Shown: positions 9,085-22,086 of the stretch, one piece after another
Layout: every line of letters starts with the position of its first letter
How positions within the stretch are numbered: position 1 is the first letter of the stretch
Source: a virus
Lineage: Duplodnaviria; Caudoviricetes
Strand: one strand, 5' to 3'
DNA: 52,300 nucleotides
IMG/VR virus record: IMGVR_UViG_3300047476_000672
Span: 1-52,300 of that record
Notes under the pieces: generated by a model
The model's database searches: none
What the model saw: only the letters and a program-made list of their open reading frames with translations
What the model was told of the DNA's origin: nothing
Made by a program: the position numbers and the translations under genes

Positions 9085-9172
9085 TGGAGCAGACAGGATT
9101 CGAACCTGTAACAGGGACTTAAAGGAATTCTACACTCTAAGTTTGTTTGGCGACCAATTCCGCCACTGCTCC
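9085..9172 (-). ncRNA. tRNA-like element with extended non-canonical anticodon arm
   Basis: Acceptor GGAGCAG/CTGCTCC, D arm GGCG-GAATTGGT-CGCC, perfect T arm ACAGG-TTCGAAT-CCTGT. Confidence 0.65.
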
Positions 9173-14454: not shown

Positions 14455-14933
14455 TACTTAGGTATTGATATTGCTATTGTTTTAGAGCCTTGCTTTTTGA
14501 TTTTAGCCGGTGGAATAACTTCTCCTGCTGAGTCTACCAACTGAGAGTAACCAATTGCATTAATCATTTCTTTCTCTCTTTCTTTAAGGATAACTTTAAG
14601 TGATTCAATCTTTTGGTTAATCATTTTCCATTGGTCATCGTGGCTAAAGTCGTATGTATTAGGTGAGCTTTTAACCTGAATACCACAACCATACACCTTC
14701 TCTCCATCAGAATAATTCTCAGCTTCAGATACGGCAAGGTCCTTAATCTTGTCCATTATTGATGAGGCCATTTCAGCTATACCTTTTGCTTTGATGTACT
14801 GTTCAATAGCGTATTCATTACCCTCCATGACTGAGTGAGCCACGGAGGATGATAGTTTGTCAATGTATTCTTTGGTTATCGTGTCAAAATTGATTGATAA
14901 GCCTGTCTCTTTTTCTTCAAAAATATTCATCAC
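14454..14933 (-). CDS. hypothetical protein adjacent to the recombinase
   Basis: 159 aa; YDFS...LKERE...GEVIPP motif. Confidence 0.7.
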   Translation of the reverse strand: MMNIFEEKETGLSINFDTITKEYIDKLSSSVAHSVMEGNEYAIEQYIKAKGIAEMASSIMDKIKDLAVSEAENYSDGEKVYGCGIQVKSSPNTYDFSHDDQWKMINQKIESLKVILKEREKEMINAIGYSQLVDSAGEVIPPAKIKKQGSKTIAISIPK

Positions 14934-15883
14934 TTCTTAATTATTTTAGCGTAATGCTCGTTACACAATGATTTAAAAGCTTCAATTACATCTTCTGGTT
15001 CTACATTAATGTATTTCTGAACGACTGATTTAGCCCAGGCTACAAACTCATTTGCATCAGAGTACTTAGATATCTCATCTGTATGGGCCATTATTCCAGT
15101 ATTAGACGGTACGTTTGGCTCTTCATCTTCTACTAAAGATTCTTTCTCTAGTTCTTTAGCTTGTCTATCTAGCTCTGCATCAATTTCTTTCTTGATGTTC
15201 TCAGTAGACATTCTGCCATGAGGACCTTTACCAAATACATTCTTGTACTCAAGTGATAGCATTTCACGTAGCGCATCACTTTCTTCTTTCTGAGGTAGCT
15301 CTTGTACTGGCTCTTCTTTTTTAACTTCAACAGGTTCTTGTGGCTTAACTTGCTTCAATTCTCCCCACTTAAATCTAACAGTCCCTTTTTCATCTTTAGC
15401 GGCTAGAAATGTTATTTTGTTATCAGTAAACTCTGCGTGCCACTTCCACTCTTTAATTTTTAGATTGTACGTCTGCTTTGGCCTGCCACCATCCTTAGTG
15501 AATTCATCTTCTCTAAGCTTCACAGATATCACAGGATAGTCGTAAAGCTCTCTACCTATACCAAGATTAAAGCAAGCACGTTTAAATGCGTCAGAAGCCT
15601 CTCCTTTAGCTGCTTCGGTCATTGATTCAGTTCCTACGTCCCATTTCCATACCCACTCACGAGTATTATCATTGTAAATACCTACACCACAGAATAGTTT
15701 ACCATCAATCAGTTTGTAGTCACGTTGCCATCCTGCCGGTGTTAGTACTTCATCTAGTCGGTTCATATCAACTCTGGCGTCCTTATAGGCAAGGATTGTA
15801 GCATAACCACCATTGTTAATTGATTGCACTCTGAAATCTACGTTTGAGATATCAAGAGGTCTTGATAATTGTTTTAAATTCAT
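14930..15883 (-). CDS. Rad52/Rad22 (Sak-like) ssDNA annealing recombinase
   Basis: LAYKDARVDMNRLDEV...WQRDY...WVWKWDVG...KGEASDAFKRACFNLGIGRELY. Confidence 0.9.
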   Translation of the reverse strand: MNLKQLSRPLDISNVDFRVQSINNGGYATILAYKDARVDMNRLDEVLTPAGWQRDYKLIDGKLFCGVGIYNDNTREWVWKWDVGTESMTEAAKGEASDAFKRACFNLGIGRELYDYPVISVKLREDEFTKDGGRPKQTYNLKIKEWKWHAEFTDNKITFLAAKDEKGTVRFKWGELKQVKPQEPVEVKKEEPVQELPQKEESDALREMLSLEYKNVFGKGPHGRMSTENIKKEIDAELDRQAKELEKESLVEDEEPNVPSNTGIMAHTDEISKYSDANEFVAWAKSVVQKYINVEPEDVIEAFKSLCNEHYAKIIKK

Positions 15884-15908
15884 AATTTAAAATGTTGATA
15901 GTGAATAA

Positions 15909-16148
15909 TTAAGCGTTGCCTTGTGTTTTTAAATTCTTGTATAAAGCTTCATTATGCTCTATATTTTCGAATGTCTCAGACATATCCTGCTCATTTGCTA
16001 ATTGTATTGCTGTCTTCATCATTGCCATAAAGTGTGGTGACTGATGAGCTATTACAGCGAGAGCATGAGTTATATCTAGTACGTCTCCGTTTATTTCTAC
16101 TTTAACACCTTCTTCAGTAGATGTTATTTTTAAAAGCTCTAGTTCCAT
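15909..16148 (-). CDS. hypothetical protein (paralogue of 16209..16424)
   Basis: 79 aa; similar hydrophobic pattern to its neighbour. Confidence 0.65.
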   Translation of the reverse strand: MELELLKITSTEEGVKVEINGDVLDITHALAVIAHQSPHFMAMMKTAIQLANEQDMSETFENIEHNEALYKNLKTQGNA

Positions 16149-16208
16149 TATATGCTTAGTAATATTGTTAATCCGATTACGTACCCAAGTACTTCAAAAA
16201 AGTTTTCT

Positions 16209-16424
16209 TTAATCTTCTCCTTCATAGCTGTTTAATAAGTTTCTTAAATTATCATCTAAATTTTCATGCACGCTGATTGCTGCTTCCATCATCTGCTTCA
16301 TAGATGGGTTAGCGTCTAGTAGCATTACAAGTCCGCTAACGATTTCTTCTCCTGTACCTTCTAATTCGACACGAGCTTTGTCTCCTTCAACTGAAAAGCT
16401 GAAGATAACCTTTAATTTTTCCAT
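16209..16424 (-). CDS. hypothetical protein (paralogue of 15909..16148)
   Basis: 71 aa. Confidence 0.65.
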   Translation of the reverse strand: MEKLKVIFSFSVEGDKARVELEGTGEEIVSGLVMLLDANPSMKQMMEAAISVHENLDDNLRNLLNSYEGED

Positions 16425-16435
16425 AAGTTAATTGT

Positions 16436-16702
16436 TTAAAATAAATCGCTATCTATTGTGGCGTAGCGAGTAACCTTCTTTGTATATCTGGACAGAATCT
16501 TCCTGATATCTTCACCTAAAAAATCTGATAAGAATATGTATACGTAACCATCACGAGGTACTGTGTTACCATTAATTAAGTTGTATACATTCTGACTTGA
16601 CAACCAGTTGCCTGGCACTTGTTCTTTAACTAATGCTTGCTGAATGTGTTTCTGGGTGTACCGTTTCTCATCTAACAAGTCTTTGATTCCCTTTTTTGAC
16701 AT
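16436..16702 (-). CDS. Cro/XRE-like HTH regulator
   Basis: IKDLLDEKRYTQKHI...LSSQNVYNLINGNTVPR; own TAAATTTG box at 16716-16723. Confidence 0.65.
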   Translation of the reverse strand: MSKKGIKDLLDEKRYTQKHIQQALVKEQVPGNWLSSQNVYNLINGNTVPRDGYVYIFLSDFLGEDIRKILSRYTKKVTRYATIDSDLF

Positions 16703-16829
16703 AGATTATTTTTTACAAATTTAGTGATTTAAAATTAAAATACAAGTATTATTTACAATTTATCGTTAATAAACTTACCTAGTAACATTCCGAAAGATGT
16801 TCCTAAGAAAAATCCACCGGCAAATAAAA

Positions 16830-17045
16830 TTATTTCCATAGCTCTACAATTTCTTTAATATTAAAATATAATTCTCTGATGTTTAATAAGGGAACAAGTG
16901 ATACTATCATGGTGTAAAGTATTACTTCTGATTGTTCTTTACTTGTTATCATTCCTTTGCTTGAGTATTTCCATTCAAGTAATATCATTCCTGAAAAGAA
17001 AGATAGTACTGAAATGAATAGGTGAGTGAATAAAAGTATGTCCAT
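16830..17045 (-). CDS. small two-TM membrane protein
   Basis: Two hydrophobic segments, VPLLN motif. Confidence 0.6.
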   Translation of the reverse strand: MDILLFTHLFISVLSFFSGMILLEWKYSSKGMITSKEQSEVILYTMIVSLVPLLNIRELYFNIKEIVELWK

Positions 17046-17046
17046 A

Positions 17047-17442
17047 TTATTTGTCCAGTTTTTTTTGTAATAAACTTAATCTGTAATCTATCTCTTTCCC
17101 AATTAAATCAAGGTGCCACGAAGCTCCACCATACTCTATTATCGCCTGTAGGTGGTCATCTTCTAAATCACAAATTGGAATCCATTTCAATGGTTGTTTA
17201 CCGTCCTTTCCTCTTGCTCCTCTGGTTGCATATTTGCGTACTGTTTCGAAGTCATCGTCTGCGTAGATATTTATCTTTTCAATCCTACTCATGTCTTTTG
17301 CTCCGTACCTTTCGTATGCTGTTCCTCCATCAACCATCGCTTCGTTCTGGCAACCGCACGTCTTGTAGTCATGCCTACTGTAGCTGACTATAGTCTCTTC
17401 ACAATCATGGCATTTTACTGCGTTGTAAACTAACTGTCTCAT
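17047..17442 (-). CDS. Zn-binding conserved phage protein
   Basis: CHDC...SRHDYKTCGC...VDGG..Y.R. Confidence 0.7.
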   Translation of the reverse strand: MRQLVYNAVKCHDCEETIVSYSRHDYKTCGCQNEAMVDGGTAYERYGAKDMSRIEKINIYADDDFETVRKYATRGARGKDGKQPLKWIPICDLEDDHLQAIIEYGGASWHLDLIGKEIDYRLSLLQKKLDK

Positions 17443-17636
17443 AGTTTATTTATTTCTTGTTTAACTTGCATATAGTATTGTTCTAATAAACTGCCTAGTG
17501 CGCCTGTGTTAATTAATTCATCACATACAATCAATGCAGCCTTTCGCGCATTCTCTTCCTGCTGTTCTGACGTCTGTGCCTCGACTAGTTCGAAGTACTT
17601 GTCATACAGTTCTTTCGCTTTTTCTTTTGCTATCAT
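17439..17636 (-). CDS. small hypothetical protein
   Basis: True start probably MIAKEKAKEL at 17636; the upstream extension runs through a structured non-coding element. Confidence 0.65.
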   Translation of the reverse strand: MIAKEKAKELYDKYFELVEAQTSEQQEENARKAALIVCDELINTGALGSLLEQYYMQVKQEINKL

Positions 17637-17653
17637 ATCTTTAAAGTTAAAAA

Positions 17654-17827
17654 TAAGTGGTGTTGTCTTAGGCACTTCATTGAGAGGTGCATTCCGTAAA
17701 TCAGCTGTTTTATTTGCATTGTCGACTTTAGCCACCGAACCAGCCACCACTTAGTTATAAAGTAGGCAACTCAAAAGGTCGACCTGTTGCCTCTGCTGGG
17801 TGACACCCCAACACTCGCTTCCTACTT
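17654..17827. ncRNA. two tandem closed stem-loop elements (candidate structured RNAs)
   Basis: TAAGTGGTG(17654)/CACCACTTA(17753) and AAGTAGG(17760)/CCTACTT(17827), each with internal hairpins. Confidence 0.4.
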
Positions 17828-17861
17828 AGTTATGTAAGTCGCAATTGCGCTTATATGCTAG

Positions 17862-18068
17862 TTATAAGAGATTTAAGCGAATCAAATCATCTTTATCAAA
17901 CATAACATCTCTTACTTCTTCGCCACAAGAAGGGCAATTATTAACTCTGTACATTACTGTATCAATCTTAAAATGTGGCATTGCTACAAATATTTTATTA
18001 TTTTCTGGAAATTGCATCCAATTAAATTCCCTTATTAATTTAGGAAAAACTTTACAACATGTATTCAT
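17862..18068 (-). CDS. small Zn-finger-like cassette protein
   Basis: CC...MPH...NNCPSCG; stop codon lies inside the attC-like core site. Confidence 0.7.
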   Translation of the reverse strand: MNTCCKVFPKLIREFNWMQFPENNKIFVAMPHFKIDTVMYRVNNCPSCGEEVRDVMFDKDDLIRLNLL

Positions 18069-18092
18069 ATCTATTAAATTAAAATTAAAAAC

Positions 18093-18176
18093 CTCTTATA
18101 ACAGTGGTTACAATCAAACGGGCGAAACGTACTGTGTTGATAGCCCGTCTGCTCGTAGCCACAAAACGTTATAAGC
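18093..18176. mobile_element. attC-like recombination site 1
   Basis: CTTATAAC-GTGGTTAC-ACGGGC...GCCCGT-GTAGCCAC-aaaac-GTTATAAG imperfect hairpin with AAC/GTT cores. Confidence 0.7.
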
Positions 18177-18194
18177 AAGGCTACATTAGTGCTT

Positions 18195-18464
18195 CTAATA
18201 TAAATCCTCACTGTATAAATTATCGCCTCTAATTTGTGAATGGTCAATAACTTGGGCATTCTCTAAAGCAATTCTCAATCCTTCTTTACGGTCAACAAAT
18301 CTGCCTTTACTTGTCAAAAATCCTTGATGATGTGGATTTCTACTAACCAACTTTGATTGCCATAAAATATTGGCGTGTCTTAATCCACAGTAAATCAATG
18401 GTTCTCCTGCCATATCTTTATCTTCTGGGTTGTGAATTGCTGCACAAATTATTTGTTCTTTCAT
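18195..18464 (-). CDS. conserved phage cassette protein
   Basis: IICAAI...CGLRH...QGFLTSKGRFVDRKEG...LYSEDLY. Confidence 0.8.
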   Translation of the reverse strand: MKEQIICAAIHNPEDKDMAGEPLIYCGLRHANILWQSKLVSRNPHHQGFLTSKGRFVDRKEGLRIALENAQVIDHSQIRGDNLYSEDLY

Positions 18465-18504
18465 TTTATCTTTCTATTTAAGTTTTTACTAATTAAACCG
18501 CCCA

Positions 18505-18572
18505 GCTTATAACACGGGTTTGGCGCAAGCCTCGTTCCTCAGCCTGTCGCCAAGCCGCAAAACGTTATACGC
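18505..18572. mobile_element. attC-like recombination site 2
   Basis: TATAAC-acg-GGTTTGGCG...CGCCAAGCC-gcaaaac-GTTATA. Confidence 0.7.
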
Positions 18573-18574
18573 AA

Positions 18575-18796
18575 TCAATCAAAACTTAAGTTTTCTTCAC
18601 TTCTTAACTCATGCAGTTTATACCTTGCCTCGTCTAGTGCCTTATATGCATTTTCAGATAAGTCTTCATGCTTTAGTTTGTTACGTAAGTATTGGTCAAA
18701 CTGCCAAGCTAAATAATACCACTTGCTACCGTTAAGACACATCTCCATTTCTTCTTTGTCTTCTATGCTGTCAAATTCTATTGTTATTTTTGCCAT
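18575..18796 (-). CDS. hypothetical protein
   Basis: Likely start MAKITIEFD. Confidence 0.65.
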   Translation of the reverse strand: MAKITIEFDSIEDKEEMEMCLNGSKWYYLAWQFDQYLRNKLKHEDLSENAYKALDEARYKLHELRSEENLSFD

Positions 18797-19046
18797 CTGT
18801 TTTATTGTTAAAAATATCATCTAAATAGTCAGACCTAAAAGAACTACCTCCAACCATATCTTCAGTAGGCGGCTCAATAACGTGGTCTTGCTTTATTTTA
18901 AAGTCTGGGAATACACTCGTAAATACCTTTACAGCATCACGTACAGTAGATGGTGCGTATGTGTGCCTACCGTGCGCGTACCTAGCTGCCATCCAGAGTA
19001 TATCATCTATCGCTGACTGCAATCTTTTTTCATCTGATTTTTTCAT
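18771..19046 (-). CDS. hypothetical protein
   Basis: MAARYAHGRHTYAPS motif. Confidence 0.65.
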   Translation of the reverse strand: MKKSDEKRLQSAIDDILWMAARYAHGRHTYAPSTVRDAVKVFTSVFPDFKIKQDHVIEPPTEDMVGGSSFRSDYLDDIFNNKTDGKNNNRI

Positions 19047-19347
19047 TCTATTCTGATTTAAAAATATGGTATTACATTGTTTTCAATACACCATAAGTAA
19101 TACTCTTCGTTGTTGTCAATATTTACTGTTTTCATTCTATTCTGATTTAAACGGTGAAATTCCTAATTCTATTTTTCCTTTGTGTTTTGACTTTTCTCCT
19201 GTAAAATGTACTAAAGAAACAGTTCCCCATACTTTTTTACCGTTTCTTATGAAATACATTTTTGCACCTAAGTCTGGTTGTCCTAACTTGTTGTAAGTTT
19301 CGGAGTCAAAATATCTTTTTGCCATTCCCATTCTATTCTGATTTAAA
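19044..19347 (-). repeat. three exact 19-bp gene-junction repeats TTTAAATCAGAATAGAATG
   Basis: Copies at 19044-19062, 19133-19151 and 19329-19347. Confidence 0.9.
19137..19331 (-). CDS. small hypothetical protein ending FKSE
   Basis: 64 aa, bounded by junction repeats. Confidence 0.65.
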   Translation of the reverse strand: MGMAKRYFDSETYNKLGQPDLGAKMYFIRNGKKVWGTVSLVHFTGEKSKHKGKIELGISPFKSE

Positions 19348-19554
19348 GGTTAATTCTTTTATCCAGTCTTCAAATTTAATTATAGGAAGATTTGCTCTAT
19401 CACATCTTATACAAAACTCCGCATATTCTTCTGCTATATCTTTCTCCATTTGTTTGGCTTGTTCAATTTCTTTCTGCCATTGTTCTGTGTGGTCTCCGCA
19501 TATCTGTTCAACCAACCATTCTACTGCTGTTAACTGTTTTTCCATTCCTTCCAT
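19333..19554 (-). CDS. small hypothetical protein (TAVEWL family) ending FKSE
   Basis: TAVEWL...IEQAKQMEK. Confidence 0.7.
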   Translation of the reverse strand: MEGMEKQLTAVEWLVEQICGDHTEQWQKEIEQAKQMEKDIAEEYAEFCIRCDRANLPIIKFEDWIKELTFKSE

Positions 19555-19688
19555 GTTTCAAAATCTTTTAGTTTATCTTCTTTCTCTTTAGCTTTCTTCA
19601 GCAACGAATGCCATCTAAACTTATCTTTAGGCTCGTCCCATAGTTTATAGAATAGCCATTCGACTGGACTTAAATTTTCTTTATCCAT
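19530..19688 (-). CDS. 52 aa hypothetical protein (xVEWL family; not in ORF track)
   Basis: MDKENLSPVEWLFYKLW...LKKAKEKE. Confidence 0.55.
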   Translation of the reverse strand: MDKENLSPVEWLFYKLWDEPKDKFRWHSLLKKAKEKEDKLKDFETWKEWKNS

Positions 19689-19828
19689 ATAACTTTATTT
19701 TAGAACATTTTTCACAAACTTCAAAGTCATGACCATAGTCTTTTCTTATTATCCATTTATACTTATGAATACAGAAAAAATGCTGGTGAAAAAACTTTTT
19801 AATACTTAGTACAATATCTCCAATCATA

Positions 19829-20143
19829 TTACTTAGTTTTAGTTAATACTTTATGTTTATACCTCCTGTGGTCTCTTTGAGTAGCAGCATGCTCTTCTTT
19901 ACTTTTGTAGTACTGCTTCCAACCACCTCTTTTTTCTCTGTCATCTAAATTCTTTTGCCTTCTTTCAGGAAATAATTCAAATTGAATTAATCGTTTATTG
20001 ACATTGAATTGTTTTGACAAAGAATGAATTGACATACCATCATTGTATAATACATGAATCATTTCCTTCATGCATGGTAGTAATTTAACTCTCCTATCAA
20101 AGAATGGAGAGTCTAGTTTCATCTTATCTGTCTTGTAGGGCAT
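19829..20143 (-). CDS. HTH-containing protein
   Basis: GMSIHSLSKQFNVNKRLIQF. Confidence 0.6.
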   Translation of the reverse strand: MPYKTDKMKLDSPFFDRRVKLLPCMKEMIHVLYNDGMSIHSLSKQFNVNKRLIQFELFPERRQKNLDDREKRGGWKQYYKSKEEHAATQRDHRRYKHKVLTKTK

Positions 20144-20144
20144 A

Positions 20145-20684
20145 TCACTTATATTTTTCTGCTATTTGCTTTAACTTACTTACGTAGTTAGGGTCTTCAG
20201 CATAGTTATCAGCAAGATACTGATAATAATCGTCTTCATTCTTAATTTTTCTTAAAAAAGCTGATTGGAATAATGCGTAATCCTGAACAGAGAAAGTCCA
20301 ATGTTGATAGTGAGCGTGACCTCTACTTTCTCCTAGAGCTGTAGTTGGTCTTGACTTAGCTACCTTCATTCCAAAAGCATTATGTGAATGAATAAAGATG
20401 TTAGATTTAAACCTTGCTGTTTCCACTAATGCTTGAGCCATTACTATATGAGGAAATTTAATTCCACATTTTTTAATGTACTGATAAAAGTTTTCTTGGC
20501 TAAAGGCTAAAGGTCCAACCTCTATTAACTTTTCTTTGTTAACTATCTTATGCTTAACAATAACATCTGGCTTTGCAGTACTCATCGTTAGCATTAAACC
20601 AAAGAATATTGCTATTAACACATAAATCAATTTAAGTTCTAATCTTCTATAGATTAAATCCTTGTTGTCGAAATAATAAATCAT
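20145..20684 (-). CDS. GH73 glucosaminidase-domain protein with N-terminal membrane anchor
   Basis: MAQALVET...HNAFGMK...YAEDPNYVSKL; TM LIYVLIAIFFGLMLTM. Confidence 0.85.
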   Translation of the reverse strand: MIYYFDNKDLIYRRLELKLIYVLIAIFFGLMLTMSTAKPDVIVKHKIVNKEKLIEVGPLAFSQENFYQYIKKCGIKFPHIVMAQALVETARFKSNIFIHSHNAFGMKVAKSRPTTALGESRGHAHYQHWTFSVQDYALFQSAFLRKIKNEDDYYQYLADNYAEDPNYVSKLKQIAEKYK

Positions 20685-20708
20685 AATGTTTAATTTTAAA
20701 GTTTATAG

Positions 20709-21065
20709 CTACGCTTTTATTAATACCTTATCATATTTTTCTTGTAGAAGTTTATCTTCCGGTGATAAAGAATTAATCATTTCAGCTCTTTTATTTTTTG
20801 TTTTTTGTTTGTGATAAGTGTAATATTTTACCTTGGTTGTTTTATGAATTTCATTGTGACATATTGAACATAGTGTTGTTAAATCACAATTAGAATATTG
20901 CCACGGCTTCTTGTTATGTATATATCTTTTGTGGTGAACTTGAAGACATGATTTAGAACCACATGATGTACATTTTCCGCAGTCTCTTTTTATTATTTCA
21001 ATTCTTTTTGATAACCATCTTTTGTCTTGAAGTAATAATCCGTAAGGTTGTTTATTTTTTCCCAT
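20709..21065 (-). CDS. HNH endonuclease
   Basis: RDCGKCTSCG...LQVHH...LTTLCSICHNEIH. Confidence 0.9.
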   Translation of the reverse strand: MGKNKQPYGLLLQDKRWLSKRIEIIKRDCGKCTSCGSKSCLQVHHKRYIHNKKPWQYSNCDLTTLCSICHNEIHKTTKVKYYTYHKQKTKNKRAEMINSLSPEDKLLQEKYDKVLIKA

Positions 21066-21343
21066 TATTGCTTTTGTTAGATTATGAAACTAAGCAAGGT
21101 GATAGAAAATAAGTCTAACCCCCTTCCCCCTAAAGAGAATTAGACTTATAATCACCATTATTGCTTCCGTTGAGTTACTCACATCGCTTTAGGCTGATGG
21201 CGGGTAATAAGTCTTTAGAACACCCATCTCCATCATTTAAGATTACATTATAGACACCACAGTAAAACAGGATGTCTGTTCCTTCCTTGTGAGTTGGAGA
21301 AGTACCTACGCTTATGTACGATGCCTCATCTAAGAATAGGGAT

Positions 21344-21454
21344 AAAAAAAAATCCCTGAAACGCTCCAACCGAATCAGGGACTTATCATGCTAAAAAAGG
21401 AAACTAAAACATGAAAAATATCTTACTGTCTGTTGGAGTGACAATGCAAATATA
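21344..21454 (-). promoter_or_regulatory. promoter plus leader RNA with 5' seed/terminator-loop pairing (copy B)
   Basis: TATATTTG 21454-21447; CTCCAAC 21438-21432; hairpin TCCCTGA/TCAGGGA with GTTGGAG in the loop; T9. Confidence 0.7.
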
Positions 21455-21496
21455 AATAAAAAATCATTCGTGGTTATTTTTTTTGAGTAAAAATTT

Positions 21497-21889
21497 TTAA
21501 TTCACCCATGAAGAATATCTTTCGTAGGCAGCCTGAGTAATAGATGAAAGATTGTTTTGTTCTATATCAAACTGTACGTTGATACCTGTACCGGCTGAGT
21601 TCATTACATATAAGCTGTCATCAGCTATAATGTAGGTAGAAGGTCTATATTCAATCTGTATTGGTAACTGTGGTAGTTCATCACCTTCCATTACTGCTTC
21701 GAGTACCTCTTCCCAAAAGTCATAGCATTCAAGTGAATCACTCCAATCAAATAGAGAAAGGAAATCTATTTCAAAACAGATTGCTTGCTGCTGTAAATCA
21801 GACGGTTTATCCATGTTATTGATAACCGCATCTACATATTTGTTGGGCAATTTTTCTAATAGCATTTCAAGTATTGTCATCTGATTCAT
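21497..21889 (-). CDS. acidic hypothetical protein
   Basis: 130 aa; FDWS...DFW motif. Confidence 0.7.
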   Translation of the reverse strand: MNQMTILEMLLEKLPNKYVDAVINNMDKPSDLQQQAICFEIDFLSLFDWSDSLECYDFWEEVLEAVMEGDELPQLPIQIEYRPSTYIIADDSLYVMNSAGTGINVQFDIEQNNLSSITQAAYERYSSWVN

Positions 21890-22086
21890 TTTATTACTAA
21901 TTTAATTATTAAATAAGAACTGGGCTTTGTAGTACGGAAACATATAGCAATTCACTAGACTTGAAATCTTTATTGAATAATGCTATTGCTTCAGCGTAAT
22001 CCTTAGCTTGAATGTTTACACCTGTGCACAATTCTTTGCCCACCATGTAACAGAAATGATAAATATTTTTTTTCATTTTTTATAAT

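Follow-up and report, generated by a model that had tools for sequence, protein, structure and literature searches.

Clusters of attC sites lacking an integron integrase (CALINs) are known from phages: Qi et al. 2023 describe 17 of them, including one in Polaribacter phage P12002L with two methyltransferase cassettes (PMC9892861). In the same report, the integrase IntI1 recombined five of six tested phage sites between the G and the TT of the core, and one P12002L site recombined with attI1 under IntI1; its main text does not mention Flavobacterium phages. The attC core consensus given there is RYYYAAC for R'' and GTTRRRY for R' (PMC9892861). A second precedent is provided by the promoter early stem-loops (PeSLs) of T4-type phages, which are reported by Arbiol et al. 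2010 (PMC2839356) to flank non-essential genes, to drive modular shuffling and to form mini-circles. Here we analyse a 52.3-kb virus record (IMGVR_UViG_3300047476_000672, taken whole and called the window; completeness estimate 77%) which carries two imperfect hairpins, E1 and E2, among the genes of a leftward operon. We think it probable that E1 and E2 are attC-like recombination sites and that they delimit two cassettes, each of a single gene, in this operon of a Flavobacteriia phage. Literature searches found no earlier account of the hairpin family in phages of Flavobacteriia; the supplementary list of PMC9892861 may include some carriers.

Hairpins, flanks and breakpoints

E1 and E2 are hairpins of one type with the plan x'-TAAC-A-stem...stem-AAAAC-GTTA-x, where x and x' are the outer flanks (Table 1). 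E1 has the ends CTCTTATAAC...AAAACGTTATAAGC (CTCTTA-TAAC-A-stem...stem-AAAAC-GTTA-TAAGC) and E2 the ends GCTTATAAC...AAAACGTTATACGC (GCTTA-TAAC-A-stem...stem-AAAAC-GTTA-TACGC). Their GC content is 0.41–0.51, against about 0.23–0.36 alongside. The two-ended pattern was found in the record twice in forward orientation, with no reverse matches, no control matches and none in 100 shuffles; the word AAAACGTTATA, allowed up to two mismatches, occurs 31 times where 40 are expected, so that only its two exact copies are meaningful. Folded as single-stranded DNA, the minus strands reach -17.4 kcal/mol for E1 (z -4.1, matched by none of 200 shuffles) and -14.9 kcal/mol for E2 (z -2.4, matched by one of 200), while the plus strands fold more weakly (z -2.25 and -0.85, respectively).

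The first-pass annotation of this DNA had described an integron-like array, with two GC-rich imperfect hairpins, a half-site remnant and one small open reading frame (ORF) in each interval. The hairpins, their capacity to fold as single strands and the single ORFs (68 and 89 aa) are all borne out. E1 and E2 are the only full elements in the record, and the term array stands here for two sites and a half-site. As for the half-site, GTTATAAGAG is indeed complementary to the core across the gene, but the remnant zone around it (17740–17880) folds no better than shuffles (z about -1.6) and gives no match to the family model described below, even with filters off.

Exact words from the right end of E1 recovered 9 and then 67 viral-contig loci, across which a 17-nt right-end stretch is identical. 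A script that joined each right end to a TAAC with a complementary arm returned 58 distinct elements measuring 49–131 nt from core to core, with size classes near 49, 71, 88–97 and 126–128 nt. The 26 shortest relatives were aligned and used to build a covariance model, R1. This alignment supports a 4-bp foot and a 12-bp stem: 91.8% of pairing cells are paired, compared with 68.3% in shuffled alignments (0/500 reach the observed value) and 23–41% in slid ones, and compensatory changes are present in 10 of the 12 stem pairs. The model gives 218 matches at E<=1 in 663 kb from 70 sources, and these form same-strand arrays of up to 12 units spaced 300–1000 nt apart. The TAAC/GTTA pair is invariant in the alignment and in register in 158 of 184 model matches. 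Among 131 distinct elements, the base after TAAC is A in 128 and the 5 nt preceding GTTA are AAAAC in 73, the last base always being C. Mismatches and wobbles are position-specific (stem positions 4, 5, 11 and 12). G-T and A-C pairs each cluster at certain positions of the stem, and bulged bases were not seen.

The loops have some recurrent content of their own. In the commonest size class (126–128 nt) the loop holds three or four spaced TTTGTGCT-like words on the strand antisense to the genes (for example at L005:1013-1154 and L061:10294-10433), which might serve as protein-binding sites or be promoter-like repeats. An identical 11-nt loop motif closes minimal hairpins of P12002L and of unrelated contigs, and it also makes up the entire content of a 29-nt gene-less unit (sites in L062, minus strand, between elements 2737 and 2588, and at L046:3151-3213 and L087:29998-30065).

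The flanks of the hairpins match across the genes. In the window, GTTATAAGAG (17861–17870) is the exact reverse complement of 18093–18102 (10/10), and GTTATAAGC (18168–18176) is that of GCTTATAAC (18505–18513; 9/9), such that the 89-aa gene unit spans 18168–18513 with terminal inverted repeats of 9 bp. The 68-aa ORF ends within the core, its stop (17862–17864) being the TAA of TAAC on the gene strand. Both traits had been noticed in the first-pass annotation, and the former proves to be a covarying feature of the whole family. To measure it, we took 83 distinct pairs of neighbouring elements on the same strand and checked the 6 nt that follow GTTA in the first against the reverse complement of the 6 nt that precede TAAC in the second. 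At least five of the six positions are complementary across the gene in 55 of these pairs, and in 38 of the 46 with gaps below 600 nt. On average 4.29 positions match across the gene, compared with 2.55 within an element and 2.67 in random pairs, and this mean was reached in 0/10000 permutations. Because the matching variants are diverse and many are non-consensus, we attribute the matches to covariation rather than to a shared consensus. Named phages display the same across-gene complementarity. In 91 of 103 gaps the genes run antisense to the AAAAC-GTTA strand. Taken over 61 single-ORF units, the median distances on the gene strand are 10 nt from stop to TAAC and 44 nt from GTTA to ATG, with the stop codon inside the core in 14 of these units. 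The gene-less units between hairpins are small hairpins themselves.

Related arrays differ at the cores. Where blocks of at least 93% identity end inside arrays (n = 38), the distance from the end to a core is at most 5 nt in 32% of cases and at most 30 nt in 61%, compared with 3% and 14% for random positions. In two closely related arrays, 99%-identical blocks end exactly at GTTA or a few bases past TAAC, and an extra 728-nt unit in phage snusmum6-1 (a gene unit plus hairpin, GTTA to GTTA) splits blocks that adjoin in Flavobacterium phage vB_FspS_filifjonk9-1. The comparison of related phages for cassette gain and loss, which the first-pass annotation had proposed, accordingly shows whole units that differ and end at GTTA or TAAC. 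When the same gene unit stands beside different hairpins, the identical tract on the hairpin side is 5–17 nt long where the junction is at GTTA and 4–12 nt where it is at TAAC, and it often consists of only the core and one base (5–6 nt). Some pairs classed as similar in the left flank differ in the last 22 nt and are not true junction cases.

For the window itself, data from other runs consist of contigs only, in which uncovered parts, depths and the many short joints (a side below 30 letters) are uninformative. Contigs from three other runs, belonging to other studies, start exactly at G18168, and one ends at 18514. The E1 hairpin occurs alone in other contexts in runs X11 (18098–18174) and X6 (18098–18171). 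A contig piece from run X4 starts at 18564 and is used cautiously, as one side of the joint from 17850 to 18564 is 20 letters long and the letters that separate the two sides are unknown. Locus L104 holds the 89-aa gene in a copy of 93% identity, whose unit ends are unchanged and whose hairpins differ on both sides. More remote homologues are placed otherwise: one in L105 has no flanks, and one of 45% identity in L106 lies in a hairpin loop. L106:1142-1563 is the only case read closely among at least seven in which the TAAC...GTTA arms stand 186–440 nt apart (also in L078, L021, L064, L038 and L030). A gene-less unit whose inverted ends measure 11 bp comes after the loop gene in L106.

A site of this kind would operate as a folded single strand, exposed in phage replication or recombination, which is cut and exchanged inside the TAAC/GTTA core. 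Its foot is the 4-bp TAAC/GTTA pair, followed by an asymmetric unpaired spacer of 1 nt on one side and 5 nt on the other. The excised circle would fold as a dumbbell, in which x'-TAAC-stem pairs with stem-GTTA-x to give a single stem, and a gene might sit in either of the two loops. Each segment between successive cores would have inverted ends, and gene units would retain their own. If either strand can fold, exchange could take place at the left or the right core, and hairpins and gene units would reassort separately.

Carriers, enzyme and competing explanations

The right end of the family matches 30 Flavobacterium phage and two Nonlabens/Persicivirga phage records. According to the covariance model, the region from 1.9 to 10.2 kb of phage filifjonk9-1 carries 12 elements at E<=1e-3 and a further one at E 0.094, and snusmum6-1 has nine. 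Five of the minus-strand genes that lie between elements there are annotated as DNA methyltransferases and many others as small hypotheticals; an integrase annotation is absent. Cultured virulent Flavobacterium phages are among the carriers, with units bearing DNA methyltransferase genes. P12002L gives two weak model matches; visual inspection shows several elements built alike, with different spacers, beside its methyltransferase genes. Nilsson et al. 2020 describe the vB_FspS phages and their variable methyltransferases, and tie differences in methyltransferase genes to plating efficiency in cultured Flavobacterium phages (PMC7077304); the words hairpin, palindrom-, cassette and integrase do not occur in that paper. 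DNA methyltransferases make up most of the cargo in cultured relatives, so that what the system shuffles between phages with common hosts is probably anti-restriction genes and other accessory genes of the early region.

The window phage appears to have no close named relative, judging from a blastn search of positions 14500–22000 against 50,697 phage records that returned zero matches. When all ORFs of 50 aa or more were compared by blastp, nothing in filifjonk9-1 matched the window at E<=1e-5, and P12002L gave only HNH-type and one other match. As the window and filifjonk9-1 have no detectable protein in common, the carriers are unrelated phages, and the simplest inference is that the enzyme is probably a host factor.

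Elements are found in 4 of 101 Flavobacteriaceae genomes, with one to three matches apiece. The pattern has six bacterial matches, mostly in small contigs of metagenome-assembled genomes (MAGs) or in one region of a 206-kb contig. In the middle of a 206-kb Bacteroidia MAG contig (G007:C18:101723-107200), three elements lie within 6 kb, possibly in a prophage. Pattern matches in Psychroserpens and Chitinophaga were unconfirmed by whole-genome model search, and a Neobacillus match scored 23.7 bits.

A number of findings weigh against reading E1 and E2 as recombination sites, and the other explanations draw on some of them. In 28 of the 83 adjacent pairs the flanks match at four positions or fewer. 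Either strand may be the one that folds: the minus strand is the more stable in 101 of 131 elements, and G-T and A-C cells number 75 and 113. No circle or excision product was seen in the other-run data, which are assembled contigs only. The identity of a 17-mer in 67 loci could support homology-driven exchange by a Rad52-like protein, and a Rad52-family protein is encoded in the window. The main rival explanation is that the elements are regulatory, PeSL-like intergenic RNA hairpins (terminators, processing sites or mRNA stabilisers), and that shuffling is a by-product of homologous or microhomology recombination aided by such a protein. Their position between co-oriented small early genes, 10 nt past a stop and 44 nt before the next start, suits this idea, as do the better folding of the gene-sense strand across the family, the fold of E1 as RNA on that strand (z -5.3) and the T-rich run that follows E1 on it; PeSLs are a precedent for modular shuffling together with mini-circles (PMC2839356). 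However, the A/T-rich foot and the lack of a T-run at E2 make these atypical intrinsic terminators, and homologous exchange leaves unexplained the pairing of variable flanks across genes, the junctions which share only 5–6 nt on the hairpin side, the hairpin-like gene-less units and the genes within hairpin loops. We regard it as unlikely to be the principal explanation; regulation is possible as a second function.

The search for an enzyme also falls on the negative side. The tyrosine recombinase family PF00589 has no match in the window, in keeping with the first-pass statement that no integrase is present there, nor in the three array-bearing records that are at least 95% complete; it is found in one carrier record which is 28% complete. 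Y1_Tnp is in none, and a serine recombinase in one, of five carrier records. No genome among 301 Flavobacteriaceae exceeded the cut-off for the integron integrase (TIGR02249), the best score being 139 bits against 265, in a search whose control genomes all fell below the cut-off and which thus had no positive control. Tyrosine recombinase genes as such are common in the hosts, several being present in all but one of the Flavobacteriaceae genomes searched. The cores differ from the consensus as well, with GTTRRRY fitting 3 and RYYYAAC 9 of the 131 distinct elements and the commonest forms being GTTATAA and TTATAAC, and the P12002L sites tested with IntI1 (PMC9892861) may be other ones than the elements read here. 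An IntI-type enzyme, as named in the first-pass annotation, is not supported by these results. A fragment of a true bacterial integron could still be envisaged, with attC cassettes taken from a host and moved by a canonical IntI, for which either that host or the 23% of the phage genome outside the record would have the gene: the across-gene signature and the stop in the core are traits of integron cassettes, the record is 77% complete, and IntI1 recombined phage-borne attC sites (PMC9892861). We consider this very unlikely, because the elements are rare in host chromosomes, near-complete carriers and host genomes alike gave the negative results above, integrons are rare in Bacteroidetes according to the account of IntegronFinder 2.0 (PMC9024848), and the core consensus, the spacer geometry and exchange at both cores are unlike canonical attC sites.

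Lastly, the hairpins do not reliably keep company with the genes. Similar hairpin interiors occur in 85 pairs of loci in which both flanks are unrelated. Among pairs with just a single flank in common, the interior is common as well in 5 of 28 if that flank is the left one and in 1 of 21 if it is the right one, which is only a weak lean towards linkage with the TAAC-side gene. As the hairpin is not reliably tied to either neighbour gene, exchange would take place at both cores. The gene cassette proposed at the outset consequently stands with respect to flanks, breakpoints and the gain and loss of units, but not with respect to a hairpin that travels with its gene. Near-identical interiors between unrelated flanks, E1 alone in other contexts in two runs and a foot tetranucleotide reminiscent of repetitive extragenic palindromic (REP) elements might instead indicate self-mobile hairpins, of REP type or of the type of miniature inverted-repeat transposable elements, moved by an HUH or other transposase to a TAAC-GTTA target with the genes as bystanders. 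Insertion predicts complementary flanks around the hairpin, whereas complementarity is found across the gene (4.29 against 2.55 within the element). Furthermore, the shared units that were read showed no empty site, TAACGTTA without a hairpin, next to them (no systematic search was made), the five carrier records are devoid of the Y1 transposase, and whole gene-plus-hairpin units are gained or lost. We consider self-mobile hairpins very unlikely as well.

Having weighed these points, we continue to favour attC-like sites bounding single-gene cassettes. A bolder proposal, which we offer tentatively, is that Flavobacteriia phages run a cassette exchange of their own, independent of integron integrases, using a dumbbell circle with two cargo loops, either strand (which would let hairpin and gene units reassort freely), and a host factor or an unrecognised phage protein. 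If true, there would be a gene-sharing network across unrelated virulent phages that trades mainly anti-restriction methyltransferases, and it could model the origin of integron cassettes and attC sites. Phage genomes are mosaic, and little is known of how single genes move between them; here the sequence reveals the unit of exchange, the exact points at which it begins and ends, and a structured site. The sites are present in cultured virulent Flavobacterium phages with known hosts, which makes the acquisition of accessory and anti-defence genes by lytic phages testable at the bench. They also show attC-like sites thriving in a host clade seemingly without integron integrases, so that either another enzyme processes such sites or phages are the place where cassettes are made.

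The operon around the hairpins

All the genes around both hairpins are on the minus strand (Table 1). The 103-aa ORF to the left of the cassettes has a PHROG match that begins at residue 39, which shifts its start to about 17636. The GC-richer stretch that follows may be a decayed or ORF-less unit. A direct repeat, ACTTAGTTAT, lies in it just outside the first cassette, with a GTTA half-site in each copy; it might conceivably be a decayed unit or an attI-like entry site. In the run X4 contig, a piece boundary falls at 17751 and is preceded by 108 nt that are skipped.

Table 1. Positions of the hairpins, cassette genes and neighbouring features in the window.
Feature	Position	Strand	Remarks
Rad52-family single-strand annealing protein	14930-15883	-	PF04098, 37.4 bits against a cut-off of 20.3
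GC-richer stretch, about 225 nt, probably non-coding	17637-17860		two extra GTTA half-sites (17751, 17829) and direct repeat
Direct repeat ACTTAGTTAT	17746-17755; 17824-17833		
Half-site GTTA+x, GTTATAAGAG	17861-17870	+	outer end of the 68-aa gene unit; no hairpin to the left
Cassette gene, 68 aa	17862-18068	-	from ORF list; no Pfam or PHROG family
E1	18093-18176	+	TAAC 18099-18102, A, imperfect stem-loop, AAAAC, GTTA 18168-18171, x; R1 65.7 bits, E 3e-12
Cassette gene, 89 aa	18195-18464	-	phrog_839 (unknown function) the sole match; no Pfam family
E2	18505-18572	+	TAAC 18510-18513, A, stem-loop, AAAAC, GTTA 18564-18567, x; R1 55 bits, E 1e-9
81-aa gene	stop 18575-18577	-	stop adjoins E2
30-nt direct repeat, three copies	19033-19062; 19122-19151; 19318-19347		
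Endolysin-like protein	20145-20684	-	phrog_21890; in the cassette operon
Small protein, weakly HNH-like	20709-21065	-	in the cassette operon; under the Pfam cut-off
Transfer RNA gene	9085-9172	-	Rfam RF00005, 35.1 bits

To the right of E2, no closing left core for the 81-aa gene (the reverse complement of the post-E2 sequence) was found past 18575; the 17 matches to it at up to two mismatches are no more than expected by chance. Further along the operon, the start codons of three minus-strand genes in a row are overlapped by the three copies of a 30-nt direct repeat, a conserved leader ending in ATG, and loose ends and joints of other-run contigs are numerous at 19329–19361, 19439–19467 and 19531. 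These repeats look like a second, hairpin-free type of module boundary in the same operon. At gathering thresholds Rfam recognises only the transfer RNA gene in the window, and no Rfam family matches the hairpins.

Comparison with known systems

REP elements and the larger assemblies that contain them (bacterial interspersed mosaic elements, BIMEs) are intergenic repeated hairpins with a conserved tetranucleotide at the foot, served by REP-associated tyrosine transposases (RAYTs). The elements described here are likewise hairpins that are repeated between genes and have a conserved foot tetranucleotide. They differ in that genes lie between them with a cassette signature, and in that none of the five carrier records has a RAYT or Y1 transposase.

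The pdif (Xer) modules of Acinetobacter plasmids and the Rci shufflons use double-stranded sites of about 28 bp or 19 bp, with a short central region and known tyrosine recombinases. In these systems, as here, modules are bounded by the same short site in alternating orientation, which gives them inverted ends. The half-sites of the phage family are by contrast split by a hairpin of 49–131 nt, and the corresponding enzyme was not found.

The resemblance to PeSLs is closer in setting, as both are conserved stem-loops between non-essential early genes and both mark the gain, loss and replacement of genes, with mini-circles proposed as vectors. A PeSL, however, combines a promoter with a terminator and recombines by homology, whereas many junctions in the present family have only 5–6 nt in common and the flanks pair across genes.

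The most extensive likeness is to attC sites and CALINs. A canonical attC site has a second inverted pair, L''/L', spacers of about 5 nt on each side and extrahelical bases that mark the strand to be recombined. Compared with this geometry, the unpaired spacer of the phage elements is 1 nt on one side and 5 nt on the other, no bulged bases are evident, about 17 nt of the right end are conserved and a gene may sit in the hairpin loop. A canonical cassette keeps its own attC site, whereas hairpin and gene reassort separately here by exchange at both cores. A complete integron would in addition have an IntI integrase, with attI and a promoter, beside the array, and no such enzyme is present in the window or in the three near-complete carriers; the elements are largely confined to phages, in a host family without IntI in the genomes searched. 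The array functions like integron cassettes, yet departs from canonical integrons in two of their defining properties. The shared features are nevertheless numerous. Both kinds of site are imperfect hairpins with conserved AAC...GTT ends and a variable centre of variable length, both form co-oriented arrays with one small gene per unit and a stop that may lie in the core, and in both the sequence after the G of the GTT pairs with the left core of the next site. A CALIN is defined by two or more attC sites that the IntegronFinder or HattCI models accept, with no integrase close by. Like phage CALINs, the present arrays have no integrase nearby and include DNA methyltransferases in their cargo, and a Flavobacteriaceae phage, P12002L, is already on the CALIN list. 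On this basis, the family is best read not as a canonical integron but as a new form of phage-borne attC-like sites.

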